In this document: positions 2,340-56,570 of the stretch, one piece after another
How positions within the stretch are numbered: the stretch's first letter is position 1
How the letters are laid out: each line of letters starts with the position of its first letter
Notes under the pieces: model-generated
Database searches by the model: none
What the model was told of the DNA's origin: nothing
Seen by the model: the letters and a program-made list of their open reading frames with translations, nothing else
Position numbers and translations under genes: made by a program
NCBI GenBank assembly: GCA_000091205.1
Contig: AP006501.2
Reading direction: 5' to 3' (one strand)
From: Cyanidioschyzon merolae
Taxonomy: Eukaryota
DNA: 64,000 nucleotides

Positions 2340-2650
2340 TGTGGGCGGTAGACGCCAAGAAGAGTGCTTCGAGGAAGCATGAGGTGTTGCGCGATCCTGT
2401 ACATCTGGTGAGTTTTAGGCTAACGCATGATATAAATCACGCCCCGGCTGATGTTATCGTCTTTATCACTTGTCGCTGCTTTACAAATAGCAGTTTGGAA
2501 CCCGTTGAGCACCCAAATACACGTCTCCCATCTGTCTCGAACAAAGTCTCATCGAACGAGACGAATACCCGTCAATCATGGGTGAAGCTTTCGGATCTCA
2601 ATACGATATCGAGTTTAGATTATCCAACGCACGACAGCCTCCCGTAGACG
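2340..2650 (+). mobile_element. Copy H, a degraded zinc-ribbon/RuvC-III remnant
   Basis: ORF 2339..2647 contains '…DVIVFITCRCFTNSS…' (matches VVKVdpryTSqTCskC), followed about 35 aa later by '…VKLSDLNTISSL' (matches DLNAxINILRL). Confidence 0.35.
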
Positions 2651-2987
2651 CGTACCCGTTTCTTTCATCATCCTCGTCTCTTCGCCAACGCTCGTATCAA
2701 AGGTGCGAAAACCTCAAATCCTGTCGCGTCTTGCATAGTATTTCATAAAGAGCACATGGTTTCGGATGGAAACGTGTCGAGATAGTCCTGGAGATGGCGT
2801 TGGATAAGCTCCGTGTATGGTAAAGGTCGTTCAGGATTGGGACAACGAGACCGGCGGTTCATCCGCCTGGTCACTCCTGAATAACAGATTTGTACCATTG
2901 ACGTCTTTTCTTTCGCAATACAGAACTGAGGGCATGAAATGTTCCCGCGACATTTCTCCAACCTATGGGGTACAATCCGTTTATTGA

Positions 2988-3752
2988 ATGCCTATGAAGA
3001 GAGCGAAAAAGAACAAAGAAGCGCGCTGCTACAAGTGCTCCAGAATTGACTCCTCTGTGTATAACAGAATCGCACCGCTTTGGAGGACAAACTGCACAGC
3101 CGACGTTATCCTCGCGCCCACACGGTTCCTCAAGAAGCCGCACCTGATTGAGGGACGACGAGTCTACCACACATTCGGGTTCTGGCTCGCTGAAACCCAT
3201 CACATACTAGAATGGAAACCGTCCATCAAGCTAGCTCGGGAGTGCAATCTAAAGTTTGAATCTCGTCCCGTCGTCATCAGCACCGTCATTTACGGGCTTT
3301 TTGTGTGGCTGCTTCTGTTTTCTCTGTTCTATCTCGCGCTTGGGATACACCGGTCACTCCATTCCCGCTGGCTCGATTTTCAGCAGGCGGGCAATGTAGA
3401 ATACAGCGTCCAAGTCCCTATTGCACAGCTTACGACTGTTGCCGACGCATTTGATGCACAGACAGGAGTTGCGATCTGCGCTTCGCTTCCTACGTTCATC
3501 ACCTTTGGGTACAGCGTCGGTGCGAGCCTCCGCAGCGATATCACTCGCTTGTGGTCATGTGTTACCGCACAGGTCCACTACAGCTCCTCTTCATCCGAGA
3601 GCCTCCTGGCGGCGAATGAACACTTGCCTCATCGCTTGGTACATGCTCTTGACAAAAAAGGAAGGCTAAACTCGATGCCGTTCTCCGTTTCCGCACCCGG
3701 CGCCCTACGCTTTGATCACGGGCTCCGTCTGGGCGACCTCCCTGGTGAGTAG
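2988..3752 (+). CDS. hypothetical protein with a hydrophobic segment (VVISTVIYGLFVWLLLFSLFYLALG); no family recognised
   Basis: 254-aa ORF from the track. Only a predicted transmembrane-like stretch supports it. Other-frame ORFs overlap it and it sits next to a repeat copy, so it may not be a real gene. Confidence 0.25.
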   Translation: MPMKRAKKNKEARCYKCSRIDSSVYNRIAPLWRTNCTADVILAPTRFLKKPHLIEGRRVYHTFGFWLAETHHILEWKPSIKLARECNLKFESRPVVISTVIYGLFVWLLLFSLFYLALGIHRSLHSRWLDFQQAGNVEYSVQVPIAQLTTVADAFDAQTGVAICASLPTFITFGYSVGASLRSDITRLWSCVTAQVHYSSSSSESLLAANEHLPHRLVHALDKKGRLNSMPFSVSAPGALRFDHGLRLGDLPGE

Positions 3753-3939
3753 TCTGTCCGCAGCATGTACGAGCACGCGCTGCTCTACTCATTAGGGCAT
3801 TAGCGGAAGGCGATGTTCTTCGTGATCAGACGAGGGCTAGATGGCAGATCCAAGCTGGAGGACAAATCGCGAAATTTCTACCCGAATATGCCGCCGTCCG
3901 GCAAATCGGTTACACAGGCCCAATAGAGGCGATCGCTGC

Positions 3940-4570
3940 GATGACAGAAATCCACGATCAAGATCATTTTCCACGCAAGCACAAGAGCCAGGAGTCTGTG
4001 CGAGCGGATCTCGTTCGAGACATCATGCTGCTGTTGAATGTCGTATCAGAGATGTACACAAAAGAACCACACATACATGTAGAGCGGATCCATCTACGAC
4101 GTGAAAAGTTCAGTGAACTTTCGGCATGAGCTTCTGCGAAAACTCTATAACGGCCGACGTCGAGATGATGTCGTCGTCAATACAGCAGCACGACTTGCTG
4201 CGCCCGCGATTTGCTTTCAACAAGAACTTCAGCAAACTTGCAGAATGTGCGGTCCCAGTATGCTATATGTAAGGCATGGAGCAGAGTGGCGGCTTGCGCC
4301 CACGACTTGATGATCAAATCGTTCATTGTACGTACCGTTGATCGAGTGTATCGCGAATCATCTCAAATCCGGTGACTCAACAGGTTCTAATCGAAAAGTA
4401 TCGAAGCAGTCACTCCGAAAACACAACTTGGATCCGAACTTCAGGTATAAAATCGGATACCTCTGTTGCTGCACTTCGAATGTCAACGCTGTATATCTAC
4501 GACAGGGGTCGGGGGAAACGATAAACAGGAACCGATCGCGTATTTCTGTGCTCCATTTTCATTTTTCTCC
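3940..4570 (+). mobile_element. Copy G, a degraded TnpB-like C-terminal remnant
   Basis: Four blocks appear in the expected order: 'ESVRADLVRDIM' (RuvC-II-like, E→A), 'FRHELLRKLYNGRRRDDVVV' (matches FvrqLeYKaewyGkkvvkV), 'LQQTCRMCG' (matches TSQTCSkCG) and 'CCCTSNVNAVYLRQG' (a remnant of CxxC…NAAxNILRxG). Motif-level only. Confidence 0.4.
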
Positions 4571-5001: not shown

Positions 5002-5808
5002 ATGGGTCAGTGTGTAAGTGGCGCTTACAATCATGAAGACGACAGCTTCGTATCCATGAGGCAGCTCCTGGAGCGATACGGGAAGTATCTCTACGAGGCA
5101 CGGCCGGATCCCACTATTCAGGATATTGTGTTGTTCTGCAAAGTTTGTAAAGTTCTACCCAGTTTGAGAATAATCTTTGAAATCCCCGTAAGCACTGGGA
5201 GAGACGTTTGGACACAAGAGACATCAAAGTCGTTTTCTGGAAGGCCACGACGAAGACGTGCACTGGCAGATGAGGAAACCGAGGTATGGATAGATGAAAA
5301 CGAGCACGTCGAGACTTGTACCCGGCCCGGAGGAAAAAGCGCACGACTCTCCTTCGATTCGAACCACGCAAACAACACACCGTTGTTCCGTCGCGTGCGG
5401 GCAGAGCTTCGTGGTCTCTGCTTCGAGGCGCGTACAAGCTGGGTGGCCACGCAGATGCATCACGTCCTGACGCAATTGCTTCCTTCTCAGATGATGGCAC
5501 AGCTATGGATCTCAGCATACAAATTAGATGGATCTGTGGTTGCGGACGTTCTCAGGCTCGAAGACCGATTGCATATAAACAGAACGCTGCTCGTTACTGG
5601 TTGGGGATGCCTGCACCCCAGTATGCGAAAAGAACGAATTCTGGAGGAGCTCGAAGGATATGCGAGGCGGCATCGATGCGGAATCTGGGCGTTCCCGAAA
5701 GAGACGAAATCGTTCAACAGCACGCCCCGCAAGCACGTCCCCAGATCACGTTGTCGATCCCTAGCAGAAAGTCAGCATCGAGCACATTTATACGCATGTG
5801 AGCAATAA
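5002..5808 (+). CDS. hypothetical protein; N-terminal MGQCVSG resembles an N-myristoylation (MGxxxS) signal
   Basis: 268-aa ORF. The only supporting feature is an N-terminal Gly2/Ser6 pattern. Competing ORFs overlap it (5114..5518 −, 5316..5801 +). No conserved domain recognised. Confidence 0.3.
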   Translation: MGQCVSGAYNHEDDSFVSMRQLLERYGKYLYEARPDPTIQDIVLFCKVCKVLPSLRIIFEIPVSTGRDVWTQETSKSFSGRPRRRRALADEETEVWIDENEHVETCTRPGGKSARLSFDSNHANNTPLFRRVRAELRGLCFEARTSWVATQMHHVLTQLLPSQMMAQLWISAYKLDGSVVADVLRLEDRLHINRTLLVTGWGCLHPSMRKERILEELEGYARRHRCGIWAFPKETKSFNSTPRKHVPRSRCRSLAESQHRAHLYACEQ

Positions 5809-5899
5809 AACGAGAATCGTTCTACAACTATGCAGGGTAAACATATATGTATCCATTCACAGACATCTCCCAGCCTATTTTGAACAAGCGCATGCTACC

Positions 5900-6440
5900 G
5901 GTTTCAGTGTTTATCCATGCAGATTTCGAGCCTGAGAGGCTGCTCCACAAAGTGAGATCGCGTCAGCACCTCGGATCTCGTCGTCAGCATCGCATATCGT
6001 TTGATATTGATTGCGGAATTGAAGTCTCGGGCCACGACCTTCATGCGTTTATCACCTTTGCTGGAACCCATCCATCCTACGATTCCTGTAACTCACACCC
6101 TCTGTGCCACTACAGTCTCGTCATCGCCCCATCGATCAGATATCTTTTCTCATCTATCTCCGTTTGGTTCTTCTTCCTCTTGTTCTTCGTTATTTGCACC
6201 TCTATGTTCGACGTTTGGCGCCAAGATGTATTTTCAGGTTTTTTCCCGGGAAACCGGCGATGATGACCCTCCTGGATCCCTGACTACCATGTCCATGTCT
6301 TTTGCTTGGATTTTTTACTTGCTCAAATGAACGCACTTCGAATGCATCAGCTACAAACCGCGAAAAAGCATTTGATGACATGCACCTGGATGTGGAATGC
6401 ATTTGGCGTCTCTGAGCATGTAATACGATCTTTGTCTGGG
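5900..6440 (-). mobile_element. Copy A, a short internally deleted derivative that abuts the ALG14 start
   Basis: ORF 6202..6402 (−) reads '…FSRFVADAFEVRSFEQVK…'. An unlisted 46-aa ORF at 5904..6044 (−) reads MKVVARDFNSAINIKRYAML…. Nucleotides 6130–6440 align with 34340–34640, for example CTCAAATGAACGCACTTCGAA[T/C]GC. Confidence 0.65.
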
Positions 6441-6485
6441 ATTTGTTGGCGGCCTTTACCCCTGCTTGGGGCTGCCAAGCCGAGT

Positions 6486-10514: not shown

Positions 10515-11573
10515 CTAAGCGACTACACTCGAGGGTGGCGCAACCCCAGATGCGTCTCGTTCATCGTTCCGGGGCGCGCTTTCCACGTGCCAAGGCGCGT
10601 CAGTCGAGCTTCGCGATGGCGTAGCGCTCGAATTCACGAACGCATCCTCCGGAGCAAGCGCCGCTGCCTCTACAGAGGCCTGTTTCGGCGCTGGTTTCGC
10701 TATGATGAGCGCGGGACCAAGTCCAAAAGGCGCTAGCCGTTGAGCTCGTATGGTTTCAAGACAGCATTCATCACGCATCGCCTCCAGAAACTCATCTAAC
10801 GGTGGGAAGAGACGTGCGCTCCTTTGCAGATAGCAATATTCCCGAAGCCGCAGGGAAAAGAGCGCACCGAGCAAGGGTACACATGTTCGCAGAAAGAAGC
10901 GGGCGATAGGTGCTGCGATGCTGCGGCCGCGCGGTTCCGTAATTTCCAGCACCACCAGACGGCTAACAGGGTCAGTGGGGGTCGCTGTTGACGCCTCAGC
11001 TTTTTTTAGCACTCTCCAAACTTCACAGAGACCTTTCTTTCGATCTGCAAAGTTCCGAACTCCGAATCCAATAATGCAGACGTCAAATCTGTTCGTCCAT
11101 TCCTGCGGAAGTTCCTCGGCAACACCTTTCACGAGCAACACCTTATCGGATACCTGAGCTCTGGCGAGCTTCCTGCTCGCAATGTCGAGCATTCGGGAGC
11201 ACGGGTCAACCGCAACAACCTGCTTCACATAACTGCCGTATCTCTGAGCGATATCTATGGCGAGATCAGCGGTTCCCGTCGCCAGGTCAAGGACCTGGAG
11301 CTCTGCTCGCTCGGAGCTGGCTACAAGAAAAGGTTTCAGGGCAGCGTCTACTGCAGTTCGCTTCCAGCCCCTGTGGAGTCCAAGACTGATCACGTTGTTC
11401 ACAAAGTCATAACGCGGAGCAACAAGCTCAAACATCGCACCGGAGCCATCGCGAACGGTTTCCCTAGAGAGTCTTTGCCGCGCGGCCCGGCACTTGTCGT
11501 CCTGCAAACGGTAGAAGAGCACGGCGAGGAACGCTGCTAGGGCTACCTTGCGGCCCTCTGCCTCGTTCGGCAT
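10515..11573 (-). CDS. COQ5/UbiE/MenG-family C-methyltransferase (ubiquinone/menaquinone biosynthesis)
   Basis: YDFVNNVISLGLHRGWKR matches the UbiE/COQ5 YD.mN..mS.G.HR.WK block. VLDLATGTADLAI is a SAM-binding motif I. The N-terminal extension looks like a targeting peptide. Confidence 0.7.
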   Translation of the reverse strand: MPNEAEGRKVALAAFLAVLFYRLQDDKCRAARQRLSRETVRDGSGAMFELVAPRYDFVNNVISLGLHRGWKRTAVDAALKPFLVASSERAELQVLDLATGTADLAIDIAQRYGSYVKQVVAVDPCSRMLDIASRKLARAQVSDKVLLVKGVAEELPQEWTNRFDVCIIGFGVRNFADRKKGLCEVWRVLKKAEASTATPTDPVSRLVVLEITEPRGRSIAAPIARFFLRTCVPLLGALFSLRLREYCYLQRSARLFPPLDEFLEAMRDECCLETIRAQRLAPFGLGPALIIAKPAPKQASVEAAALAPEDAFVNSSATPSRSSTDAPWHVESAPRNDERDASGVAPPSSVVA

Positions 11574-12576
11574 ACGCAGCGTGTGTTCAAATAGCTCTTC
11601 TGCGGGACAACGCTATTCCCTAGTCGAGCGGTAAACACCGTTCACTGAGCCGAGTGCGTTAGCGATGCAACGCCTGCGCGGAGCGCTAGCACCGACGTAA
11701 CTGTTGTTGGCTACTGCGCTCAAGCGAGCTACCCCATGCGCAGTGACAATGCTTTGGATAACATCGACAACGCTTTTGTCGCTCGGATCCGGTTCCATTG
11801 TATGGAGCTTTCAGTTTTCCTCATTCGGCAGTCTCCACATCATGTCCCAGCAAACTGAATAGGCCTGGGCCGAGCTGCAGAGACCCATGCAGGGTCATGA
11901 AGCAGATACGGGGCGGGTGTTCTCAGGCGTCACACAGCAGCATCGAACAGCACCACATGGCCAGCTAAATTGGGTGCGAGCATACAGTTCCATGTGTCGA
12001 ACGAGGTCATAAAAAGCGGAGTTTAACGTAACTGGAGCCTCTTGCCCTGGTGCTCCGCTCCGATATCGCGTTGCCCGTGCAGGACTCTCGGAAGTGGACC
12101 CAAAGACCTCTGTCCATATGCGTGATTGCTTTTCCTGCGAAACTCCTTCGTGCGTCCCGGAGACGACGTGATGGCTGTAGCTGGCGAATGTTTTTCGTTC
12201 CAAGCACAGCGCTGTGCTGCTGTATGTTCTTCATGCAAACCTTGACCGTGAATCTCAACGAGACCGTTCATAAAAATGCAGGATGATGATCACGCTGATC
12301 ACTGTCCTGGAAAAAGATGCTTGCCACGAAACCAGAACAAGAGTGATTCCTGGTAAATGGACAAGAGCTCTCTGGACAATCTGTGGTGGAGGAAAAGAAC
12401 GCACTTTGTTTGATACATGCACAACTCGACACTGCATGGTGTTCAGTTATGCATGATTCGCTTCTTCTAGTAGTCCAACGCAATCTTTTTCCGCCGGCGA
12501 TGCGGTGTCTACCACGAGATGGACATCACGTTGCAATGTACCGTATAGATCGTAGACGAGTTTCCTACAGTATATA

Positions 12577-13330
12577 CTATGTACTGAGCATTGCAAGGAG
12601 GACGACACTCCTATTGAAGGTCGGTAGTACCACACAAGTCAGATGGTTGAGGAACACCGAAAGAAACGAGTACATGGGTTGCGCGTCAAAAACCGATATT
12701 CTCAAAGACTGCTTGGAGTCAATGGTAAAAAAGGACCCATTGATCATCATACGGAAAGAAAACGCAACGAGGCACACCACGGGCGTCTCTGTTTCTTTAC
12801 TGCTAGTTCGTGTGGTCGTGAAAACACGGAGGTACAGTCGCAAAAAATATTCTGTTTCACGCACGGCTATCTTGCACCGAAATCGCAACAACAGCGTTCC
12901 TGGAAAGTCACGATTGGTATGAAGCACAGGAACGTCGATTTGTTTCCCCAGTCGATGAGAGTTGCTCCGGATGAAACGATCGGAGCGCGAACGGGTATAC
13001 GCGGACATGGAGGCCCGCAGAATGTGCGGTCCAAGTCGAAGAGAGCGACGACATCATCTGTGCTGGCGGGAGTGGAGTCGTTTGGCGGCCTCAGTTTCGC
13101 TCGTACAGAAGGCTCATACATCGGCTCCAGCCACTTTGTCGAATCATTCAAGGCTTTTCCCTGACATCAGGCGACGTCCCTCTATTGGCCAACCTGGTAT
13201 TTCAGCATTCCCCTTGCAGTCCAGCTTTTGCCGATTCTATCAGGTTAGAGCTGCTTTTCATTTCTGCACACTCTCTGAGGTCCAAACGCATCCACGGAAT
13301 GTTTTCTGTCGTGTAACGTAACGATCGCTC
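12577..13330 (-). mobile_element. Copy I of the same family, minus orientation, head-to-head with copy B
   Basis: ORF 12577..13008 (−) contains '…GKQIDVPVLHTNRDFPGTLLLRFRCKIAV', which matches the KRIEF…NRDFxAAINV block. ORF 13245..13436 (−) contains 'HSVDAFGPQRVCRNEK', which matches the 'ADAFEVRSFEQIK' N-terminal block. Protein-level similarity only. Confidence 0.4.
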
Positions 13331-13399
13331 CACCGTGCGGATCGCTGAAATGTTCAGCCCACGGTGACACCAGGGCGAATGTCGTCTCTATTTCGCAAG

Positions 13400-14090
13400 T
13401 CCAGTTTGCGCCGGAAGGGTTCTCTCCTAACGGCATGAACCAATGCGTTCATTTCCAAGAAATAAGGAATGAGCTGGGCTGTATACTCCAAAATGTCGAG
13501 ATGGAGGGAAGGTAGCCGACCGCTGCGGCGATAGAAAACCATGGAGAGCTGATAGAGCACCAAATGGCCCAGAGGGCGCGAATTCGCGGACTGCTTACAT
13601 TGACGAATTCAAGAACAGACAATAAACGCATGGAACTCTTGAACCGAGACTTTCAAGGCGCTATCAATATCAGACGATGTGCGGTGTTGAAGACAAGACC
13701 CGAGGATCTGACGCAATCCATTTTCTTGCGGGGCCAGCCTTTCAGGGTCGAAGTGTACAAGGAGAAGCTGAGACCGATCGCAGAGGGTCGGTCAAGAAAG
13801 GCTCGAAGGCGTGTCCAGGTGGGTAGCTATGTTTACCCTCCATGGCTGGGAAGCTTTTTTTTGTTGCAGTGAACGTCTTCTGTAGAACGCCAAGAAACGT
13901 CGCTCCGACACAAAGCGATCTAATACTACGCACGTACTCGAAGGGTGCTGATCGCAAGCAAAGCGTGGATCGCTACTCCCGTCTGTGCATGAAATGTGTA
14001 CGCGGTATCCGGAAGGCGCAAGACAGGAACTTTAACGCTGCCGTGAACGTCCTTCGATTGCTTGCAATCGATCTAAAGCGAACGTAAGAA
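13400..14090 (+). mobile_element. Copy B of the TnpB/Fanzor-like element (5' region + S1 + zinc-ribbon/RuvC-III S2)
   Basis: ORF 13564..13872 (…NKRMELLNRDFQGAINIRRCAVLKTRPEDL … GSYVYPPW) is followed in another frame by ORF 13842..14087 (…YSRLCMKCVRGIRKAQDRNFNAAVNVLRLLAIDLKRT*), which reads CxxC…D-R-N-F-N-A-A-V-N-V-L-R-L. An upstream TGCGTTCATTT box (~13430) resembles the 5' regions of copies A, C and D. Confidence 0.6.
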
Positions 14091-14700
14091 GACAGTCGGC
14101 GTGAAATTCGGAGATAAACGAGAAGAGATGGAAGCATTCACAGATAACGGCCACAAAAGCTCGCGCGTTTATGACAACGGAAAGCGCCCCAAACTTTAGG
14201 ATTCGTGTCCGAGTTAATGGACATGTTCCATGTGATTCTGATACCGGTGAATAGACAGCGTAGGCAATCGTGAAATCGTTAGTAGGTATTTTGTGTGCCT
14301 CTCTCCATGCCATTTGCTGGAAAGTCGTTTTTTCCGTAACATCCGATGGAGTAATGTTTGGGCGGTTCTGTGGGCTCCGTCGTCGTCGCTGACGAAAATT
14401 TCAGTAACCACAGCAGATACCAAATCGTTCGGAAATAACTGGGTACTTAACAGTTCAGGCGGATGCGGTCCGTATCGCTGCGTGGTGCGCGCCCAGCTTT
14501 TGCCCGGTGTGGAACAGTGCTTTCTCTCCAGTGCCGCAGCGGCCGGGCGACTTGCGAGTCACGGCTGGTACGAACGAGAGTGGGTCACTCGACCAGCTAC
14601 TTCGGCAGACCAAAGCTTGGGTTGCCAAGCGTCGTTTCTGAACGTGTGTTTGTGCCACGAGACCCTGCTGCAAGAAACGCCCAAAGGCTCAGGTTGAAGA

Positions 14701-23695: not shown

Positions 23696-24329
23696 GCACA
23701 GAGTCTGCGTTCTTAGAGTGCTCGCACTGGGACTTGTACGCGTGCCATCGGTTTTGGAAAGCGGTCCAAGGTACGGTCCTGTGATGTATATGCGCGCGCA
23801 CCATGTGATAGCTTTGGCGCAGGCTCTACGAAGCGCAGTCAAGTCTGGATCACGATGATCTCCATATCGCGTGCGCTCTCGTGTCTGTCGTGGTGATTTT
23901 CGCCTTTGTAAAAAGTGTTCATGCAATGCCTTTCGGAGATTCGTCGCTTCTCAGCCGACGCGCGCTCATATGACCTCACAAGAACTGCTGCGGCCAGAGA
24001 ATCCGCACTGAACGCTCCAAAGGCTCCGTGTCCGCTTGCAGAATCTGTACGTGACCTGCAGGCCGCAATCCCGCCGAATGATGTTGCAGCACGGGTAAAG
24101 TAGCCGCTGCGCTGCATCGGATTTTTTTCATTGACAAAACGTGTGCATAGGCCAGTGCTCTCCGATTATGCGCATTTTTCTTTTCTTTCTCTTTTATTTT
24201 GTGTTTAACTTCAGTGCGCGGTAATGTATCTATAAAGCCCCCTACCTCCAAGTTACATTACCTATGCTGATTCTCGGATATTCTGGTCGTTTCATACTTC
24301 CTATCGTGTGTGCCTAGAGCCTGCCTTTC

Positions 24330-24640
24330 CGCATCCGCCGTTGCGCTTGAACCGCTGGAGCAGATAGTTCATAGAGCTAGAACAGCTTTTCTATACCCCA
24401 GAGGGCGTCGGCTCGAGGGGTGCTTCACCCGACGTAGAATCGGGTCTCGTCGTCAGTTTGTGCTCGGACAGTCTGCGGATGCAAGCTCGCCTTCGCGGCA
24501 CGACACGCTGGAGAAACTTGGCTGTTAGGATAAATCCTGGGAGTCGCCTCTCTCCTTCGTGATCATGCATGGAATGCGTTGTTGTCGGTTGGCAATGCGG
24601 GTTTGTGCTTGACGCTCACCACAGTGGATAGGCGCAGAAA
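24330..24640 (+). repeat. Dispersed repeat R3, copy 1 (partner at 35860–36160)
   Basis: 24370–24460 aligns with 35895–35985 (CAGAT..CA.AGAG..AGAACAGCTTTTC.AT.CC..ACAGAGGGCGTCG.C.CGAG…TGCT.CACC.GACA). It encodes 'RTAFLYPRGRR', and copy 2 encodes 'RTAFPFHRGRR', a TnpB N-terminus-like block. Flanking blocks also align. Confidence 0.55.
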
Positions 24641-34033: not shown

Positions 34034-34640
34034 CTACGAGTACAGAGGGTAAGTATATACACACCTGCAGACGCGTCCCAGTCTTTTTTGATTGGCTGCC
34101 TGCTTTCGGCTGCAGTTTCTCCCTGCGCACTTCGAGTCTGAGATGCTGCCCATAAAGTTCAATCGCGCTAGCTCCTCGGGTCTCGACTTCAACGCCGCAT
34201 ATCTACTGACATTGATGGCGGCTTTGAAGTCTCGGTTCACAAATTCCATGCGTTTCTTGCTGGCGCCGCTGCTTGTACTCACCAGTGTAAGTCGTCCTCG
34301 AAGTCGTGGCCTCGGTGCTACAGCAGTATCGTCGTCGCCGTCCCGTCGGGCAAACACCTTTACTGGACTATCCCCCTACTTCGTCTTCGCCACTTGCTCT
34401 TTTCCGCTCGATGGTCGGCGAAAAGGGGAATTTTTTCGTTTCCTTTCCGGGAGCCGGCGATGATGGCCCTTCAGGATCCCCGGCTTTCATATCCATACCT
34501 TTTCCTTGGGGTTTTATCTCTTCAAATGAACGCACTTCGAACGCGTCTGCTATAAACCGCGAATAAGCATTTGGTGACACACATCTGGATGTGAATCACA
34601 ATCGAGATGAAATCCATAGCATTGAACTCCTGTGCCATCG
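34034..34640 (-). mobile_element. Copy C, a short (~0.6 kb) internally deleted derivative that retains N- and C-terminal TnpB-like ends
   Basis: ORF 34368..34580 (−) reads '…YSRFIADAFEVRSFEEIKPQGKGMD…' and matches the TnpB N-terminal signature 'kAyKfRLyPtkeQ'. ORF 34034..34357 (−) reads '…KKRMEFVNRDFKAAINVSRYAAL … SKCAGRNC … RVCRCV'. The nucleotide sequence is co-linear with 5900–6440 and, in reverse orientation, with 56060–56560. Confidence 0.65.
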
Positions 34641-35859
34641 GAGCACCGCGAATGTCTGGCACGCGAGGCGCCCAGGGGACTGAGGTCCGTCCGCCCTACA
34701 CCAGGGTTGCTGACCCGAGGTCTGCGTACCGGAACCGCGAAGGAGCTTGCCAACTCCTTAGTCAATAGTTTGGTTGGGTTGTATTGGCGTACGCCATATT
34801 CGCCTGACTGCGTTGCAAGGTAGCGTAGCTGCTTTTGAAACGGAGCTAGCCCTGGTCCACGGTTCGAAAGTTGCGGGCGTGATGCGCGGCCCCATGCCCC
34901 GGAGGTTTGCCATTGAGGGCTTCAAGTTCTCGCTGTATTTGATCGTACCGTTTTGCGCTGTTGTGTTCTTTGGTTCCAGCGATCACTCCTGGCTCGAGCA
35001 AGCTGTCGAGCGGTGGCGCTACGTCCAGTATCCCGTCAACGAAGAGTCAACGCTGACCTCCGCTGAAATCACAAGAAGGGTGTTTAAACAGCCGAAAACC
35101 GGGGCAGCTGAGGACCATCGAAAGTGAGCGAGTCTCGCGAAAGGGCGCCGCCCTTGCGCCTTCCGGAAGACACCCGTCTGGTCACTCTCGATGAGGTTCT
35201 GCAATGTTGCTGACGATCTCAACAGCAGGATGCGTGGATGGAAGCGTGGGCTTGCATGCTCGTCGAGACCTGAAATCGAAGAATACCCAGGCCTGCGCAG
35301 ATAACAGCATCGGTTCAGAAGCCAAAGTCGCAGTCTCCATAAGCAGATAAGAAATGACATCGGAACGGCCGGCTGTCAGACACAGGCACAAGCCATCGCA
35401 TATCGAAGAAGCTCGCTGGCCTCTATTAGACATCGTCATCTTACCCAAACGCTCACATCATTCCTTGTGAAAAAGCCATGGACAACGTAACGCCGAGATC
35501 GAGGCCTCTGTGCTGCATAATGCCTGCAACGAGCACGTTGGTAATGTCTAGTGTCAGCGATTTCTCCCATGCGCCACAAGAGATAAACGATTGCATCTCA
35601 AGAGCTCACAAATAGGGAACGGCTTGCCTCGTTCAGCGCTCGCTTCGAAAAATTTTAGCCCTGTCTGCGAGGCGACAACGCGTATCGTAATGCAGATTTT
35701 TCTCTTCGACAGAACCTTGGCACAACCTAGCTATCCCCGATCGCAGCGCCTGTTCGCAGCGCACAGGGAAGCATCAATCGTTCCACCTGCTTCCAAGTTC
35801 CACACGCCGTGCTTTCCCCCGAAGGAACCAGTAATTTTTACGCCATAACGTGTGCCGAG

Positions 35860-36160
35860 TGCATGCTATGAACACCAGCCGTAGCGCCTAAACCGCTGGC
35901 GCAGATGCATCACAGAGACAGAACAGCTTTTCCATTCCACAGAGGGCGTCGCCCGAGCAATGCTACACCTGACACGGAAACAGGGCTAATTATGATTCTG
36001 GGATCCTGCAAGCTGTGCAGACGGACGCACTGCCTGCGACAGCGCGAATCGACATTATAGGAGACCACTGCGACCAGGGCGACGCCCAGGCGCAGGCTAC
36101 CGGCTCCTAGTCCCAGAATGATATGCGTTGCGGATGAGTTGGTCAGGTCTCAATAAAGCA
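35860..36160 (+). repeat. Dispersed repeat R3, copy 2, immediately upstream of element copy E
   Basis: See R3 copy 1. Confidence 0.55.
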
Positions 36161-37470
36161 CCTGCCACTGGGAGGAGCATCAAGCACTAGCCTGGGAGAC
36201 ATGTCCAGCTCGCGGGAGTTTCCGCCTGTAAAGTAAACTTTCGAAGGTATGGATGTCTCTTCCCCAGTTTGCAGTTTCTCGAAGAGGGAAAAGAAATCAT
36301 TATATCGTTGCTAGTGAATCGTGAGTCTCTGTTCTTTGTTCTAAATAGCGCGGTCGATATGCGCACCTCGAGATTTGGGAGTTACGAGACACGACGCGCA
36401 TCTCGCCATGAAGGGAAATACGATCGTGATCATTCGTTGTCTTCTTGCTCTAACGACAAGTTGCATTCGCGTAAAGTCCTAGCAAAGTATTGTTTTCATT
36501 TCAATCGTGTTTCAACTCTCAGGTTAGTGTACTCAAGTGATTTTTCACGGTTTATACCGAATGCGCTCAAAGTGCGTTATAAGAAAAATTAGGAAAAGGA
36601 AAGTTACGGAAAGGGAAGCGGAGGGTCCTGGAGACGCGGTTTCGTCGGCTAGCGGAGAAAAACGAAAAACAGTGCGGAGCAAAGCGGAGCACGAGAAGAC
36701 CAAGGAGCAAATGCAGGAGGCCGCACGTCAATGGCTGCAAGAAAGGCGACACTACGACGATATGGTAGTGAAAGACTGACTTCTCGGACATACCAGGGAT
36801 CCATCCAAGCAAAAGTTGTGAGAGGCCATCAGAAACCGTGTCGATTCGTACTCCATGAGTGTTACAAAGGCTTCGTCAGGGATCATGTATTTGGTGAGGG
36901 AGATGTATCGCGACGTGACGCACATGGAAACAGTCGAGAATCCGGAAGGGTTTTTCAACATGGCGTCTATCCGCCACCTGATGCTCGGCTCAGGGGAGAC
37001 GTCGATGAAACATGAGCGAGTGCACGCCCTCCACGAAAATCACACCAAATATCGCTTCAACGGTATTCGATACAGGGGTGACTGGGGTATTTACACCTAC
37101 GGGGCGATGAAGTACATCACGAACAAGAATAACCACATGATCGTGAACCTCAAACGTCTCGTGATATGCGCCGTCTTTGTGCTGTACCCGGGCCTCTCTC
37201 CAGAGGAATGAGATGGGCCATCGTCAGTGCCATCACCAACGATCGTCATCATGAAGATGAGGTCGAATTTGTGGACAAGAAGACCTCACGCAGGAGCACG
37301 AATAAAGCTTCTGCCCTGCGTGCGGCTACTCAAGAGCATCGTGCAGTCGTGGGGCTGGTCAATCCAGCAGAAGAGGTATCAGATATGGAATAAAGCATGG
37401 GAAAAGAAGTAACAACCAAATCCTGCGCTATTTCGTATTCCTGAACCGAGAACTCGAACACAAGGCGGAA

Positions 37471-38247
37471 ATGGAGCAGGGTGTGGGGAACAATGCAGAG
37501 TCAGAGCAACGGAAGGCTGCGCTTCTGGAGAAGCGCTTCGACGTCGTTCGTATCTGCAACATCAAGTCACAATTTGGTACAATCGGCTTCAGAGTTCTTT
37601 ACGGCATCATGAACGAGATCTGTCCGGAGTTCGATGTAAGGAAGATAGAGTTCACCGGCGAAAACCGGGAATTCCATTGGAAAAATATCTTCGATTTCAA
37701 ACGTCTCAAAACGAGTAAGCAAAAAATATTCACGAGGATGATAGAAACCGATGGGGTATCCATGTGTGTACACTATCCGCGCTTGAAGGCAGATGGTCCT
37801 GTTGCGTCGTCGGCGTCGCCCGTGACGAAGCATGAAGGTGAGAAGAAGGCGGATCCTACGACGCAGAAAGTGCGGGGAAACGACTTTGTCGTTGGCGCGG
37901 CGAAGCATGAAGATGAGAAGGAGGCGGATCCTGCGACGCAGAAAGTGCAGGATAACGACTTTGTCAGTGGCGCGAACCCCGGAAACACGAATATCATAAC
38001 CATTGCAGCATGCAAGCGTGCGGGAGATGGTAAGGACGGCAACTTACGTCTGAAAGACACGCGTCTTTTGAGGTTCTCGAGAGCAAGATACTATCGAGAA
38101 TCCGGTATAATGAATGCGAGGAAGAAAATCGACACATGGAATGCAGGAATGAAGGATCACCTGGAAGCTATGAGCGGGGTAACGAGCCGCGGAGCGGACT
38201 TTGAAGCTTTTCTGAAATTCATGGGAGTTCGTGCTGCTCACTGGTAG
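37471..38247 (+). pseudogene. TnpB/Fanzor-like ORF fragment (C-terminal half, long variant) carrying an internal 75-bp tandem duplication
   Basis: Its start (MEQ…EQRKAALLEKRF) and end (…FLKFMGVRAAHW*) are homologous to ORF 38549..38926 (MEQ…QKHRALTEEQMERRAKF … GVMYARW*). A duplicated block [25 protein letters not shown] / [25 protein letters not shown] lies at roughly 37835–37985. Confidence 0.55.
37835..37985 (+). repeat. 75-bp tandem duplication (2 units) inside the copy-E ORF
   Basis: catgaaggtgagaagaaggcggatcctacgacgcagaaagtgcggggaaacgactttgtcgttggcgcggcgaag is followed directly by catgaagatgagaaggaggcggatcctgcgacgcagaaagtgcaggataacgactttgtcagtggcgcgaacccc. Confidence 0.85.
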
Positions 38248-38548
38248 GCGCTGTGGAGAGAATATACCAAGCCCCGGTGTTCTCGTCTGTGTATGAACTT
38301 GTACTGTGGGAAGAAGCGTGCATTTGCCAACTTTTTCTATCAGTTGAACGCCTTGGCTGGAGGACGAGAGTCAGAGAGTCGTAACAGCGACTGGAGCAGG
38401 GCTCTGCGCGTCCAAGAAAGGGAGCATACTCCCTGTATCGACAAGAGCGTACAATGAGTGCGCTCACCGTTTTGTTGTAATACCGATAGATGAGTTCCGA
38501 ACGTCATACATACACCGTGAACTGGGACGTACACTTCACAGGGTCGAG

Positions 38549-38926
38549 ATGGAGCAGTACCAGCAAAGCCCTGGAGATATACAAAAACACAGAGCGCTGA
38601 CGGAAGAGCAAATGGAACGGAGGGCGAAATTTCGTGGACTAGTCGCACTGGTGAGTGTACCCAACGGCAAGAAACGTATAGAGTTTCTGAACCATGACTT
38701 TGACACAGCAATCAATGTAAGGCGATGTGCGGTGCTGGAGAACAGACCCCCCGCCCCACCCCCCGAGTTGACTAGAGCCAACTTCGTCGGGCGACCTCTC
38801 AAGGTCCCGTTGAACGGAAAGAAGCTGAAACCAATAGTAGCTGGCCGGTCGAGAAAAGCCTGGGAAGCGACTGCGCGTCTGCGTAGAGACATCCACGCTG
38901 TCGGCGTGATGTATGCGCGTTGGTAA
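38549..38926 (+). pseudogene. TnpB/Fanzor-like C-terminal fragment (S1 type: KKRIEFLNHDFDTAINVRRCAVL)
   Basis: Shares the RDFxAAINV block with ORFs 13564..13872 and 34034..34357, with which it is co-linear. Confidence 0.55.
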
Positions 38927-45289: not shown

Positions 45290-45830
45290 TTGCTCGCATG
45301 CCTCCTTGCCATTACGGACAGGCGGACTGGAAGCCTATCGGTTTTGTCTGCAAAATCGTTTAGAATTCGGGTTTCGTGCTGAGCTGAACAAGGCTACACG
45401 CTTGGATGGTCTATGCGATATCCTGAAACGACTTGTGCAGTCATCATCCCGTAGAGTTCAAGTAAACATCGGCACCGCCACGTGATAAACCGCCGCACTT
45501 GTCCTGTATGTGCCTCCGCGCCAATCTTGCGCTAAAAAGCTTCATGTACAGCACTGCAACTTCATATTTGCTCCGAGAGCTTTCATAATCCACCGTGCTC
45601 TCTACGCGAACACCCCCTCATCTCGGTACATGCGCCTTGGCTCTACAGCACACTCTTTCTCACAAAGGTTTGCCGATCTTCGCAACAAATACAATGCAAG
45701 TTGTTCCCGCTGTTCGGGATCCTTGTTACCCAGCGCAGCTGCGAGCCTCAAACGCCGACGCTTATGAGCGCTGGACAAGTTGCCGTCGCGGCACAGTCGT
45801 ATATGCTGTGCTCCGCGCGCGCGCACTAAC
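45290..45830 (+). mobile_element. Copy L, a degraded TnpB-like remnant adjacent to the gyrA 3' end
   Basis: ORF 45144..45485 contains '…LEAYRFCLQNRLEFGFRAELNKA' (matches kAYKFRLYPTKEQ…fG). ORF 45510..45767 contains '…KYNASCSRCSGSL' (matches yTSQTCSKCGhv). ORF 45595..45897, in another frame, contains 'PCYPAQLRASNADAYERW' (second Cys + decayed RuvC-III). Confidence 0.4.
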
Positions 45831-49899: not shown

Positions 49900-51200
49900 A
49901 ATGCTCAAGCCGTTTGCATCCTGGTCCCATACAAATGCATGGTGTGCGCGAAACCCCACGTAACATGAACGTGGAACGCTGAACCGCTTGCAACGTTGCT
50001 GGCATTCGATATTTTCCGAACTTTTCCGAAGATATGCAACCTGAAGATTCGAATTGCATGAATGAAGGCTGGCGGATCCGTATGTAGTTTCAGGATTGTG
50101 GGTCATGTCCAGGGAGTGGCTCCCGCGATTTCTCGGCACTGGAATTCGATACGTCACCGTCATCAAGATGATTTTTCGTGGCGCGCTCGAACAAGGGCTC
50201 CTAAAAGAATCGCTATCAGCATCGAGGGCACGCGCAAAAGCCTCTGCTCGTCCATTTCCGTACTCGTAATAGGTTCAAATCACGCATTCTTCAAGGTTTC
50301 GATCTTTGTGTTGCAGGGCGCCTGTTGAGTGCAGCGATTCGCACCACTCAATTGACGACGATGAAGAACATTCCACGTGATCCATTGACGATGTTTTCAT
50401 GCGCTCACGCCGAAACCTCGCTGACCGCCTCTCGGCATATCATCGATTCTGTTCGCTAGATCAACCATCATCTGTTCCGTGTCATCGATGAAATGGCACT
50501 GGGCTGCAGCATGATGCTTTTTGCGGGAGTTGCTCCCAGACGTTCAAATCTCTTCTATTCCTTTTACACGGAAATGGGTCTTGGACTAGGAGTTCAGTTA
50601 CGGTAGCGATCGTTGCCACTGCAGTGTGCGTCATCATGTCGCATAAAGGGAACGGAGACAATTGAAGACTTCTCGGTGCGTTCTCTAATCAGGCGTTCCC
50701 CTCCGGTACCCGTATCACCATGGAAAACATCGCGTTCAAGATCTCCTCTGTCGAATGGAATAGCATGTGCTTGCATATGCAGTCGATAGCGTACTCACCG
50801 AGGGTATCGCGCAGACGCAGCCCGTGATCGATGTTACGTCAACGGGCGCGAACATGGAGCAGAGCACCCTGATGAGCTGCATGGAACCCCAGGGGGCACG
50901 TATCAAACGATGAAGCAAGCCTTCTCGTTCCAAGGGGCGGCTATCGGGGAAGCATTTATAATGGATATACGGAAACACCTGATCATTGCCAAGTGTCGTC
51001 CCGGTGAAGCGCGCAGAAAGGCGGTATGTAAAAAATGAGAATAGAAAGCGATGCGCAGATCGCAGCGTTCGCTTTTAGCATAAAATACGTCGACAACTGC
51101 CGAGAGAAACAATGTAGAGACTTTCAGGCTGCCATCAGCACACTTCGACTGCTGACAATCAAGCTGAAGGGAAAGGAAAACCAAGCAGTCGCAGAAACGG
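49900..51200 (+). mobile_element. Copy F1, a ~1.2 kb repeat; direct partner of F2, lying 3' of HisA
   Basis: Nucleotide similarity to 52880–54210 across several blocks: CGATATTTTCCGAACTTTT, GCAGCGATTCGCACCACTCAATTGACGACGA, CATGGAAAACATCGCGTTC. It ends with ORF 51035..51301 '…YVDNCREKQCRDFQAAISTLRLLTIKLKGK', a CxxxC + RuvC-III-like motif. Confidence 0.6.
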
Positions 51201-52879: not shown

Positions 52880-54210
52880 TACGCCAGAGCAGTTCAAGCC
52901 TTGTGCACGCCAGACAGGCACAGGCGCGCTGCGTCTTCCACGGCAACACCCGTGTCGGATGAAAGTGGAACACTGGGCTGCTCGCATTGGTGCAGCTTTA
53001 CGATTTTTTCCGAACTTTTTTAGATGTAAAACCGCGGCTTTCGGAAAGAAGGAATATCGGCTTACGGGTTTATACGTAGTTTTAGGATTTTTGGGTGTCC
53101 TTATGGAATGGCTTCTTCGAACTTTGTCCGCTACAGCTCGTTTCGTCACCGGAATCCAGATGGGATTCTAGATCAGAATCTGGATGATTCGCAAAGTCGC
53201 CGAACATGAGTTCGAGAATCAGTCGACATCAGTTCCCGATTCATTCGAGCATGCCTCCAGTCTTCTACATTCCTTTCATGTTTCATGTTTAAACCAGATT
53301 TTCTTCAACTCTCCGATCTATGCCTTGCAAGGTGTTTCGTGGGCGCAGCAATTCGCACTTCTGGATTGACGACAAGAAAAACTCGCGGCCGTCGCTTGAC
53401 GACAAGTTCCAGAGCTCATGTCGAAAGCTCACCCAAGTCGTCACGTTTCGTAAACGATTCTGCTCGAAAGACGAGTCCTCCTCTATTTGTGGCCCTCTAC
53501 AAAACGACATTCGACTCCAGCACGACATCGCTTTTAGGGCTTGCTCCTAGAGGCTCCTATTTCCTCTGTTTGCGTCGAAACCGGATTCGGAGTCAGACTT
53601 GAGCCATCGCACCGATTGCTTCTAGTGGAGCGTTTGTCACCGCTGTGCACGAAGAGCGTGAAGACGAATCTTAATTTCTCGACACGTTCTCTGGTCTGGC
53701 TTTTCCTTCCGGTGCTCGTTTCATCATGGAAAACATCGCGTTCCACAAATCCTCTACCGAATGGAACAGCGTGTGCGTGTGTGTGCACCCGGCATCCTTC
53801 TCACAGAGGGATCCTCCAGAAAACACCTGTTACCATAGATTACGTCACCTGGCACGTAACTGGAGCAGGGCATCGAGGGGAGCCCCCTGTACCTGTCAAG
53901 GGATGTATCGAGCCATGAAGCAAGCCTTCTCGCATCAAATGGCGCTGGCCGAACGAACGAATGAGCGTGGTGAGCTTGTAGGAACACTTGACTTGGTCCA
54001 AGTGTCACCGATGCGACGGGCACATTGAGACTGTACGCATCGAAGAGGAAAATTGCAACTGACGCGTAGATCGCGACGACTTCCTGTGCACGAAATGCGT
54101 TGACAATAGCTGGAAACTGCGAATTCCGGACTTGAACGCTGACATCAACATCCTTCGACTTGTGAGAATGGAGCTGGAGAGACTAGCACATTTAAAGCCG
54201 GGTATGAGAG
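52880..54210 (+). mobile_element. Copy F2, the direct partner of F1, lying 5' of HisA on the minus strand; it carries the best-preserved zinc-ribbon/RuvC-III block
   Basis: The boundaries and motifs are the same as in F1. The C-terminal segment is listed as a separate feature at 53982..54218. Confidence 0.6.
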
Positions 54211-54320: not shown

Positions 54321-54340
54321 TTCACACACACACACACAGA
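54321..54340. repeat. (CA)8 microsatellite
   Basis: The sequence reads cacacacacacacacaga. Confidence 0.85.
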
Positions 54341-54383
54341 TATACAGCGGCTTTCTGCATTTTTCTCAGCCCAAAATGAGGTT

Positions 54384-55805
54384 TTAGACGAGATAACCTA
54401 CCTCGGGATACGTTTTGGCAAAGTACTGCGTCCACTGCTCCAGGCTGTGACGCTGCTCAGATGTGAGCATCTTGATATCGAGCGGTGGCTTCGTCGGATC
54501 CACCATCTCTGCGGAGAGGTCCGCAAACACCAGTGCTCGGCTGGCGTCGCGCCCTGCTAGGATGTGGTACGGCTCGCCTGCTCGATAGTGGTGCGCGGCC
54601 TGGGTCACATCGAACACCCGTCGATTCACAGCGACATAAATAGGACGCTCCGACTGAGATCCGTCAAACATTGCCAGTTCCTCTGTGGTGAACGGCCGAA
54701 CGGATGGCACCCTCTCCAGTGGTGAAGCTGTGCGCTCCCAAGCGCCGGCATCGCGCTTCGCAATCGTACCGTCGGCGCGGGGTGAACCCTTCTGGGCCAG
54801 CAATTTGCGAAAATATGTCCAACTGGTCTCGTTCGGTGTCATGTAATTCGACGGTGCGTGCATGTACTCTGGATGGTGTTCCTCGACGTATGCACGGACG
54901 TCCTCGGGTAGATCCTGGTACCCGTTCTCGAGCTTCTTCGTGAAGCAATGATACACGAGACGGCCAGGGCGTTCACCCATCTCCATCCAGGGTAGCCACT
55001 GACCCATGCGAACCCAACTGCCCTGGCATGGAACGGATACGAGATTCGAATCATGAAGATCATCCACGCGTGCGTAAAGTTGGAAGAGCTCCGCGCTCTC
55101 ATAAAAGGGGCTCGCTGACTCAGCGGGGAACTCGGATGGCGGCAACGGATTCGGGTAACGGAGGAAAATTTCAATATGCCAGCAGAGGTCTGCCCCGACG
55201 CGTGTGAACGGAACCAAGAATGGTTTGCCATCACGCGGATTCTTCTCCAGAAACTGCAGGTTGACCGGGTCGTTCCAAACGTGAACGACTTGATTCTCCA
55301 TTCCCGTGAACGGGTTGTTCCAAGTTCCGTGTAGAATTCGACGATTGTCCGGATCCCTATACAGTCCTACTTCGCGGGTGAGAATGCGCCAGCCGCCTTC
55401 TACTTTCACGCAGCGCGCGATATTGTAACCCTCGAAGCCGAGGATGTGTCGCGCACCCGCGTCAGCGATGTAGGCGTGAATCTCGCCGCCAAACCAAAAC
55501 ACGACTTCTTGATCCGGAACTAGGGACGCTCGAGTTTTGATAAAGGCTCGTAAGTTTTCCTCTGAGCTGTTGCCGATCTTCTCAACATCTATTTGCGGGC
55601 GTAGTGCGAGCAAGTCGCGAGCGCTCGTCACCAGAGCTCGTTGCTGCCCCTCGGGACCGTTCACCTGTTGTGCAAGCACCACTCGATGGCGTCTTGACCC
55701 CGCTTTTCTGTACACGGCGTCGTCTGCGTGCCGCAACGAACGACTTGGTCCATAATTCGTCCGCCTGAACGAACACGGTATTGTTATGTACATAGTCTGA
55801 ACCAT
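54384..55805 (-). CDS. fusion protein: uncharacterised ~340-aa N-terminal domain + C-terminal MAPR/cytochrome-b5-like heme/steroid-binding domain
   Basis: The C-terminus (FTTEELAMFDGSQSERPIYVAVNRRVFDVTQAAHHYRAGEPYHILAGRDASRALV) aligns with PGRMC/MAPR cytochrome-b5-like domains. I do not recognise the N-terminal domain. Confidence 0.7.
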   Translation of the reverse strand: MVQTMYITIPCSFRRTNYGPSRSLRHADDAVYRKAGSRRHRVVLAQQVNGPEGQQRALVTSARDLLALRPQIDVEKIGNSSEENLRAFIKTRASLVPDQEVVFWFGGEIHAYIADAGARHILGFEGYNIARCVKVEGGWRILTREVGLYRDPDNRRILHGTWNNPFTGMENQVVHVWNDPVNLQFLEKNPRDGKPFLVPFTRVGADLCWHIEIFLRYPNPLPPSEFPAESASPFYESAELFQLYARVDDLHDSNLVSVPCQGSWVRMGQWLPWMEMGERPGRLVYHCFTKKLENGYQDLPEDVRAYVEEHHPEYMHAPSNYMTPNETSWTYFRKLLAQKGSPRADGTIAKRDAGAWERTASPLERVPSVRPFTTEELAMFDGSQSERPIYVAVNRRVFDVTQAAHHYRAGEPYHILAGRDASRALVFADLSAEMVDPTKPPLDIKMLTSEQRHSLEQWTQYFAKTYPEVGYLV

Positions 55806-56059
55806 AATTTCCTAAAACATGCCACAACGCGAGTCACCTTCCCTGAGGGTTCTCTCGACCATCCGTTGTACCGTTTTGCCTGGCGATGATGATGCTGATG
55901 GCGCTGGCTGCGGCGCCTATCGAGCGGTTGATGAAAACGATGCGCAGCGCGAGGCAGGCCGCGTACCGCCGCCTCCATCACCGTTCACGGGGGGAATGGA
56001 TGTGAAAAACGCCGCCCTCGGGCGCGCGAGGCGTGCGCCATGGAACGCACCGGCATCGC

Positions 56060-56570
56060 GACTGGCGGGTTTACACGTTCACCTGAATTGTGTTCCACAT
56101 CCAGATGCGTGCCATCCACTGCGTGTTCGCAGTGTACAGCAGATGCGTTCGAAGTGCGTTCATTTGAACAGATAAAAATCCAAGGGAAAGATATGGACGT
56201 GCAAGTCGAGGATCCTGAAGGGATTTCAAAGCTACCTGCTTGATAAAACCCTCATCTTGCTGATTATCAAAAGGCGAAGAAGTAGAAAAAGGAGGTAGGT
56301 GAGATAACGTGCGTGCTCGACGGGATGATGTCGAGACTGTAGTGGAACATGGGGCACCAGTCTGAAGACTCCTAGCGTTGACGAGTTCATCTAGCATCAA
56401 TATATGCAAGGAGTTCGTGAACTGCGACCCCATCACCACCATCAATATCAGATGACGTGTGGCGCTGAAGACGTGAGACCCCAGGAGCTGACGCGATCCA
56501 GTTTTATGGGGCAGCCTCTGATGCTCGGAATGTGCCTGGATAATAACTGAAGCCAATAGCAGCGGGTGCG
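56060..56570 (+). mobile_element. Copy D, a short degraded derivative in plus orientation
   Basis: ORF 56040..56243 reads '…CTADAFEVRSFEQIKIQGKDMDVQVEDPEG'. A degraded '…EFVNCDPITTINIR*' lies at ~56420–56470 in a broken frame. 56075–56250 is the reverse complement of the 6250–6440 / 34470–34640 block. Confidence 0.6.

Follow-up and report, generated by a model that had tools for sequence, protein, structure and literature searches.

The 64,000-nucleotide stretch of Cyanidioschyzon merolae DNA analyzed here (contig AP006501.2; its full length is referred to as the window) carries long intronless open reading frames (ORFs) on both strands at a G+C content of 50-60%, and its spacers hold decayed repeats. 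We are confident that these repeats of strain 10D nuclear DNA are fossils of DNA transposons that carried Fanzor1, with CMe-1A as the main family and a second, older family beside it. Pfam searches of the window ORFs identified XPG/Rad2, ARID, WDR26-like, organelle-type gyrase A, Na+/H+ exchanger, and UbiE methyltransferase genes, all eukaryotic nuclear genes. Eight ORFs matched C. merolae 10D proteins exactly (BAM82837–BAM82850, including CMS239C and CMS247C, on a 1,282,939-bp record). Thus, the window is nuclear DNA of an intron-poor red alga.

Two repeat families in the spacers

Repeats were located by self-comparison of the window with blastn and by tblastn of all stop-free frames against the window. 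Dispersed, diverged repeats were found on both strands, at 65-75% nucleotide identity and with E values down to 1e-53 (self-blastn). A reading of the DNA made from the letters alone (the sequence-only reading) had proposed interspersed, related, and decayed repeats in the spacers of both strands, and this was borne out. It had also assumed a single family; in the self-comparison the repeats instead split into two, with no nucleotide-level match between them. The protein and DNA profiles of family 1 gave no significant match to family 2, and their kinship was seen only when profile was compared with profile. Six pieces belong to family 1 (CMe-1A Fanzor1), namely, one near full-length copy, one 3' fragment, three deletion derivatives, and one old divergent copy. 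Four pieces, with no nucleotide match to the CMe-1A consensus, form family 2. Stops, frameshifts, or truncations were present in every copy, as the sequence-only reading had held. The pieces are listed below, together with one position that was not retained.

425-1870 (-): old and heavily decayed Fanzor1 copy of a divergent subfamily (P0227/P0109-like), found with profiles and tblastn; outside the range covered by the sequence-only reading
3358-4335 (-): family 2 copy, VVDLCGNT(stop)...CLCIKCV...NRDLDAVFYIARLL
5860-6397 (-): ~550-bp CMe-1A deletion derivative with 'ARDFNSAINI', consensus ~830-970 plus ~2850-3090 (self-blastn, DNA profile, consensus alignment)
13469-13827 (+): CMe-1A 3' fragment (profiles, consensus alignment)
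13951-14108 (+): family 2 3' fragment, RLCMKCV...DRNFNAAVNVLRLL, ~120 bp downstream of the preceding fragment
34059-34617 (-): ~550-bp CMe-1A deletion derivative with 'NRDFKAAINV' (self-blastn, DNA profile, consensus alignment)
35766-38890 (+): copy F, a near full-length CMe-1A pseudogene (profiles, alignment to the CMe-1A consensus)
45330-45719 (+): 'copy G' of the sequence-only reading, not a family member (no repeat, no profile match)
49965-51191 (+): family 2 copy with a frameshift and stops, ...CRDFQAAISTLRLL
52894-54190 (+): best-preserved family 2 copy, ...VVSL(stop)EHLTWSKCHRCDGH...FLCTKCV...PDLNADINILRL
56076-56618 (+): ~550-bp CMe-1A deletion derivative with 'NCDPITTINI' (self-blastn, DNA profile, consensus alignment)

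Eight of the 11 positions named in the sequence-only reading (3.9, 5.9, 13.4, 34.0, 36.3-39.0, 49.9, 52.9, and 56.1 kb) were recovered, and those at 2.3, 12.6, and 45.3 kb were not. The 2.3-kb position may be the 5' end of the 425-1870 copy, which could reach ~2.3-2.4 kb, an extension that lacks statistical support. At 12.6 kb lies a different repeat (12.5-13.4 kb) with no Fanzor coding similarity. Copy G, with EAYRFCLQNRLEFGF and NASCSRCSG, contained no ORF of note. Most of the motif strings fared better: the RuvC-III strings NRDFQGAINI (13642), NHDFDTAINV (38690), DRNFNAAVNVLRL (14022), DLNADINILRL (54129), and RDFQAAISTLRLL (51116), as well as the zinc-ribbon string TWSKCHRCDGH (53991), all lie in frame within confirmed copies. 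LQQTCRMCG at 4227 (+) is on the wrong strand of the minus-strand family 2 copy, and ITCRC at 2465 (+) found no support. A RuvC-III regular expression run against the whole six-frame translation matched only twice, both times in confirmed copies.

The repeated block ADAFEVRSFEQ(I/V)K, taken earlier for an N-terminal protein motif like that of IS605-OrfB, is real and conserved in four copies, but it is not such a motif. It lies at positions ~850-890 of the CMe-1A consensus, ahead of the ATG at 906, and in copy F its reading frame is not that of the ORF. As an alignment of many elements also places it downstream of a TATA-like box, the block is 5' untranslated region (UTR) DNA. No Pfam match to an N-terminal motif of the HTH_OrfB_IS605 type was found in window sequences.

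The confirmed Fanzor-derived DNA adds up to ~10.2 kb, i.e., 16% of the window and about one-third of its non-genic DNA, and to call it the dominant intergenic repeat of the locus was therefore fair. With ~150 CMe-1A copies in a genome of Cyanidiophyceae size (at most ~18 Mb according to the abstract of PMC13353863), the window lies well above the average density of the genome.

Family 1 and the Fanzor1 element CMe-1A

A Fanzor1 family named CMe-1A was described in C. merolae by Bao and Jurka (Mobile DNA 4:12) in 2013, with ~150 copies, a ~3-kb consensus, ~80% identity of each copy to that consensus, no terminal inverted repeat (TIR), an undetermined target site duplication (TSD), and some copies intact (PMC3627910). 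The supplementary consensus measures 3,169 bp and has an ORF at 906-3110 encoding 734 amino acids, and no other Fanzor family is listed there for C. merolae (PMC3627910). Here, window positions 35766-38879 of copy F aligned with consensus positions 62-3089 at ~82% identity, in agreement with the ~80% reported. The remaining family 1 copies were 68-76% identical to the matching consensus segments. Length (~3.1 versus 3.17 kb), the single 734-amino-acid ORF, and the lack of a TIR also agree, and no essential difference separates family 1 from CMe-1A. Since this family of C. merolae was published in 2013, its presence here does not amount to a new kind of system.

CMe-1A is a ~3.2-kb element without TIRs, with a TATA-like box, a 5' UTR, an intronless 734-codon ORF, and ~60 bp after the stop codon that end in a small hairpin. 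In its protein, the N-terminal half is REC-like, and the RuvC domain, which carries an Asp-Glu-Asp triad, is split. In copy F, the protein profile spans positions 63-730 of 741 and the family DNA profile positions 61-2717 of 2820. The copy is badly damaged: its start codon has changed from ATG to ACG, and it carries frameshifts and in-frame stops, at least three of each. Stitching across three frameshifts yielded a ~480-amino-acid conceptual protein that contains NHDFDTAINVRRC. Its RuvC motifs are as follows.

37969-37992 (+): RuvC-I, 'GANPGNTN' (family consensus GADPGNTN; catalytic Asp replaced by Asn)
38486-38506 (+): RuvC-II, 'IDEFRTS' (Glu kept)
38690-38719 (+): RuvC-III, 'NHDFDTAINV' (consensus NRDFNAAINI)

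The triad is thus not intact anywhere in the window, as copy F has Asn at RuvC-I and the other family 1 copies lack RuvC-I and RuvC-II. Together with the frameshifts and stops of copy F, this marks the family 1 copies of the window as dead members. Judged from the sequence, nothing in the window appears to be active.

Just upstream of RuvC-I, the Fanzor1 ORF contains a 75-bp (25-amino-acid) tandem repeat, 'KHE(E/D)…', seen at 37821-37970 in copy F and in homologues P0001/P0002. Copy F has two units, one more than the published consensus, and some metagenome proteins have three to five. The 13469-13827 fragment keeps the last ~100 codons, including 'NRDFQGAINI', and the 3' end; it matched the protein profile at positions 629-727 with E = 1.5e-28. 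The divergent copy at 425-1870 was matched by tblastn with P0227 (E = 3.8e-18) and P0109 (E = 3e-15).

The stitched copy F protein retrieved 125 homologues, at E values down to 1e-186 and ~60% identity. All were derived from metagenomes (JGI, ENA, Logan, and Metaclust), and the two source contigs examined look eukaryotic. A profile search of 1.84 billion protein representatives gave 1,917 relatives, and a deep family alignment was built from 39 diverse members, mostly ~600-780 amino acids long. In this alignment, D421 ('DPG') and E592 ('VDEFRTT') were invariant and D658 ('NRDxNAAxNI') was nearly so. The 39-member profile matched the solved Fanzor1 proteins PpFz1 of Parasitella parasitica (9CF0; 2.5e-22), SpuFz1 of Spizellomyces punctatus (8GKH; 3.7e-16), and GtFz1 of Guillardia theta (9CER; 2.6e-10). 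When a shallow profile of 25 close relatives was used instead, the PDB search returned no Fanzor match.

The same family was examined at the level of structure. With a shallow alignment, AlphaFold reached a predicted local distance difference test (pLDDT) score of 35, which was unusable; with the deep alignment, the score was 85.8 for P0227. The AlphaFold2 model is that of a family member and not of a decayed window copy. In Foldseek, its top seven PDB matches were all Fanzor1, at E values of ~1e-16 to 1e-17. SpuFz1 was aligned with a template modeling (TM) score of 0.63 (query) and 0.71-0.74 (target), PpFz1 and GtFz1 came next, and Cas12 variants, Cas12f, and Fanzor2 ranked far below Fanzor1. 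The CMe-1A family therefore shares profile homology, the overall fold, and the RuvC D-E-D triad with SpuFz1 (8GKH/9CEU), PpFz1 (9CF0), and GtFz1 (9CER), at a sequence identity of only 12-16% between the family model and these structures. The homologues, the Fanzor1 profile match, the P0227 model, and the 82% identity to CMe-1A together bear out the earlier assignment to a TnpB/Fanzor-type RuvC nuclease element family. The accompanying remark that Fanzors have been found in few lineages is outdated (PMC10432273, PMC10530073).

Deletion derivatives, element ends, and family 2

The three ~550-bp derivatives of the window and the metagenome locus L037 share one junction, at which CMe-1A consensus positions ~793-969 are joined to ~2851-3088. 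The 5' segment holds the TATA-like box, the 5' UTR, the ATG, and the first ~20 codons, and the 3' segment holds the last ~80 codons, including RuvC-III, and the 3' end. Such recurrence means that a non-autonomous deletion derivative has itself spread, presumably mobilized in trans. This derivative was not described by Bao and Jurka, whose TE-N2_CMe shares the 5' 635 bp of CMe-1A instead (PMC3627910). In Spizellomyces, ORF-less 'ghost' loci of ~550 nucleotides are known for the Spu-1 element and function with SpuFz1 as ghost ωRNA loci (PMC10432273). The derivatives here likewise keep both element ends, lack the ORF, and occur as several dispersed copies, and in architecture they correspond to the ghost loci.

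Among 80 related loci from metagenome contigs, the similarity starts and stops sharply, and several alternative 5' extensions were seen. The 3' end is ordered as '…CCACTACTGTAC', ~12 variable nucleotides, and a small terminal hairpin, which is included in the published consensus. Two sequence variants of the hairpin were found, CGTTCGA/TCGAACG and CGTTTTTC/GAAAGACG (3' ends of L003-L082, e.g., L007:3960-4007). In two short window copies, a small hairpin likewise comes after the 'GTTTACCC' end, at 5790-5830 (-) and 56640-56660 (+). For the terminal hairpin, a role as a signal for transposition, as a terminator, or within an ωRNA is conceivable. A Replitron or Helitron affiliation was considered from the 3' hairpin, and no CTRR end was seen; Replitrons are reportedly not found in red algae.

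The four family 2 copies gave a 1.3-kb majority consensus, in which similarity was recognizable only in the last ~165 codons, the C-terminal third (…GAGHRGEPPVPVKGMYQAMKQ…VVDLWEHLTRSKCHRCEAH…CLCMKCVDNSRKLRNRDLNAAINILRLL). This part comprises a RuvC-II Glu, a CxxC…CxxC zinc ribbon, and then "NRDLNAAINILRLL" (RuvC-III). In the consensus and in relative P0372, the zinc ribbon reads KC(H/Y)(R/C)C…LCMKC; it is partly mutated in individual window copies. All window copies carry stops or frameshifts in their C-terminal part, and the copy at 52894-54190 has three in-frame stops in its last ~130 codons. When the family 2 profile was aligned with the Fanzor1 profile by hhalign, the probability was 97.7% (E = 1.8e-12), and the 118 aligned columns reach from the strand ahead of RuvC-II to a point past RuvC-III. 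Among 5.8 billion proteins, only two fragmentary homologues (175 and 188 amino acids) and no intact relative were found. On this pattern, the most plausible reading of family 2 is a second Fanzor/TnpB-like lineage, older than CMe-1A and apparently extinct, that keeps the canonical CxxC…CxxC. As a fossil, it is a modest addition beyond the known CMe-1A.

Several further features border on these elements. A 1.1-kb repeat at 24118-25218 is 82-88% identical to metagenome loci L004, L038, L039, and L076; its relatives directly adjoin a Fanzor element in L038, L039, and L076 and stop ~230 bp upstream of one in L004. Within it, 24241-24444 is 78% identical to CMe-1A consensus positions 84-282, and 24663-24694 corresponds to 503-534, so that this repeat is probably related to TE-N2_CMe. 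The separate ~890-bp repeat at 12513-13402 is ~70% identical to L053:1957-2851 and L069:7005-7885. It adjoins Fanzor pieces in both loci and in the window, where it lies just upstream of 13469-13827, and could be another transposable element or an alternative 5' module.

Two observations concern genes. The UbiE gene of the window (10515-11573) lies near Fanzor fragments, and in metagenome locus L002 (protein P0119) a gene call joins a Fanzor fragment to a UbiE/COQ5 methyltransferase; this fusion is probably a gene-calling artifact at a similar locus of a related alga. A 254-amino-acid ORF with an ATG, at 2988-3752 (+), overlaps the family 2 copy at 3358-4335 in antisense and resembles the 53.8-54.2 kb region. 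It is likely spurious, as the resemblance comes from the repeat and is no evidence of a gene.

Weighing the Fanzor1 reading

Several results weigh against reading these repeats as Fanzor1-carrying transposons. No Pfam gathering score, including that of the OrfB/TNB families whose use had been proposed at the outset, was reached by any window sequence or by any intact CMe-1A-type homologue. Six-frame pieces of 12.0-14.4 kb gave nothing relevant, and the stitched copy F and intact homologues P0001, P0002, P0004, and P0109 matched no family. PF07282 (Cas12f1-like TNB, formerly OrfB_Zn_ribbon) touched 7 of the 39 family relatives, weakly, and the family 2 consensus scored 25.0 bits (E = 2.2e-5) against its cut-off of 26.3. 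The homologues bear a precomputed PF26935/DUF8286 label. In family 2, the ~800 bp upstream of the recognizable part (1.3-kb consensus and locus L083) showed no similarity, no RuvC-I, and no N-terminal (REC/WED) half. No TIR, TSD, or transposase gene was seen in the window copies and related loci. The CCCC zinc finger, a strictly conserved Fanzor feature according to Bao and Jurka (PMC3627910), is missing in canonical form in the CMe-1A clade, which has THHELGC and no second CxxC between RuvC-II and RuvC-III (consensus DEFRTSYTHHELGCTL…VRGLLALVST).

The search for a 3' RNA counts on the same side. At gathering thresholds, Rfam found no match in the whole window, and RNAalifold gave -10.5 kcal/mol with almost no covariation for the 3' end. 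Pair counting on a hand-derived 3' hairpin showed no covariation above that of shuffled sequences, and the 3' regions of window copies folded no better than shuffles (z of -0.6 and -0.1). In three of six better-preserved relatives, a ~95-nucleotide imperfect 3' hairpin reached z values of -2.6 to -4.6, in a region that is also coding, which confounds its conservation.

The zinc finger itself sets the families apart. SpuFz1 has the CCCC finger, whereas the CMe-1A clade does without the canonical form, and this is a modest addition of the present analysis. In copy F, the region 38486-38560 is likewise without a canonical CxxC…CxxC, unlike SpuFz1 and family 2. Further differences from the Spizellomyces system are the 30-nucleotide TIRs of Spu-1, of which CMe-1A has none, and the ωRNA and cleavage demonstrated for SpuFz1, which in CMe-1A are putative.

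Some window copies might still be functional or domesticated, the ~550-bp derivatives, for instance, serving as putative guide-RNA 'ghost' loci for intact Fanzors elsewhere. The shared junction of the three derivatives, their TATA-like box, 5' UTR, and whole 3' ~240 nucleotides are compatible with this, as are the working ghost ωRNA loci of similar size in the SpuFz1 system (PMC10432273) and the intact CMe-1A ORFs reported elsewhere in the genome (PMC3627910). However, the derivatives are only 65-70% identical to one another, their 3' regions folded no better than shuffles, and no covariation was found. We consider continued function unlikely.

Family 2, in turn, might be an unrelated repeat or gene fragment in which CxxC…CxxC and a 'RDxNAAxN'-like string occur by chance. 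The restriction of the Fanzor-like part to the last ~165 codons, downstream of ~800 bp without similarity, the PF07282 score short of the curated cut-off, the scarcity of homologues, and a PDB search with the family 2 profile that found no Fanzor or TnpB would all fit such an origin. Against it stands the hhalign match, in which the 'GAG…PVPV' strand, the RuvC-II Glu, the zinc ribbon, and RuvC-III follow one another colinearly in both profiles. Moreover, E…CxxC…CxxC…RD occurs here with the order and distances of the published Fanzor/TnpB signature (PMC3627910), and the four copies are dispersed, decayed, intergenic, and transposon-like. An unrelated origin is thus quite improbable.

A prokaryotic source, i.e., TnpB insertions of the IS200/IS605 or IS607 type through recent horizontal transfer or assembly contamination, can be given almost no weight. 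It would account for the weak PF07282 similarity, and the elements do share with bacterial TnpB the split RuvC, the TNB/zinc-ribbon insertion between RuvC-II and RuvC-III, the order D…E…[Zn ribbon]…RD, and carriage on mobile elements; family 2 even keeps a TnpB-like canonical CxxC…CxxC and nearly reaches the PF07282 threshold. Yet the products of the flanking genes are identical to nuclear-encoded proteins of C. merolae, from a chromosome record of 1.28 Mb. Fanzor1 came first both by sequence and by structure; TnpB structures gave no sequence-level match, and Cas12f and Fanzor2 were matched only weakly, by fold. Unlike TnpB elements, these lie in a eukaryotic nuclear setting, have a TATA-like promoter, and encode a protein about twice as long (~734 amino acids) with a Fanzor1-type long N-terminal half. 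No TnpA was found either, the 3.1-kb element being fully accounted for by one ORF and its UTRs, with the small 3'-terminal hairpin as the only other structure seen.

A mere coincidence of motifs in the six-frame translation of GC-rich spacers, with no real element family, is practically excluded: such strings do exist (45.3 kb, 2465 [+], and 4227 [+]), but nucleotide similarity links the copies (E values down to 1e-53), copy F has homologues to 1e-186 and follows the published consensus for 3 kb at 82% identity, and the RuvC-III expression matched only inside confirmed copies.

Reading the repeats as fossil Fanzor1-carrying transposons also suggests how their ancestors may have behaved. Fanzor1 is an ωRNA-guided double-stranded DNA endonuclease (PMC10432273, PMC10530073). 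By analogy with characterized Fanzor1 and TnpB systems, an active CMe-1A copy would produce the Fanzor1 nuclease and an ωRNA encoded by the right end of the element together with the 3' end of the ORF (PMC10432273, PMC10530073, PMC11423790). The guide part of this ωRNA would read into flanking DNA. The complex would then cleave DNA that matches the guide, for example a site that is empty or from which the element was excised, and repair would restore or spread the element. More tentatively, C. merolae may have carried two Fanzor lineages, CMe-1A without the canonical CCCC finger and an unreported, extinct family 2 with it that survives as ~1.3-kb fossils, while the ~550-bp derivatives may have been ghost loci that supplied, or still supply, guide RNAs in trans; we regard this combined picture as possible rather than probable.

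TnpB is the ancestor of Cas12 (OMEGA systems), and Fanzors, which attract interest as compact genome editors, are the eukaryotic branch of these TnpB/Cas12 RNA-guided nucleases. C. merolae is a genetically tractable red alga with a minimal genome. The additions made here are modest: a fossil family 2 that keeps the canonical zinc ribbon, ghost-like derivatives, and a CMe-1A clade without the canonical zinc finger. Nevertheless, a catalogue of the Fanzor copies, ORF-less derivatives, and possible guide RNAs of C. merolae could aid the study of what Fanzors do for transposons in vivo.

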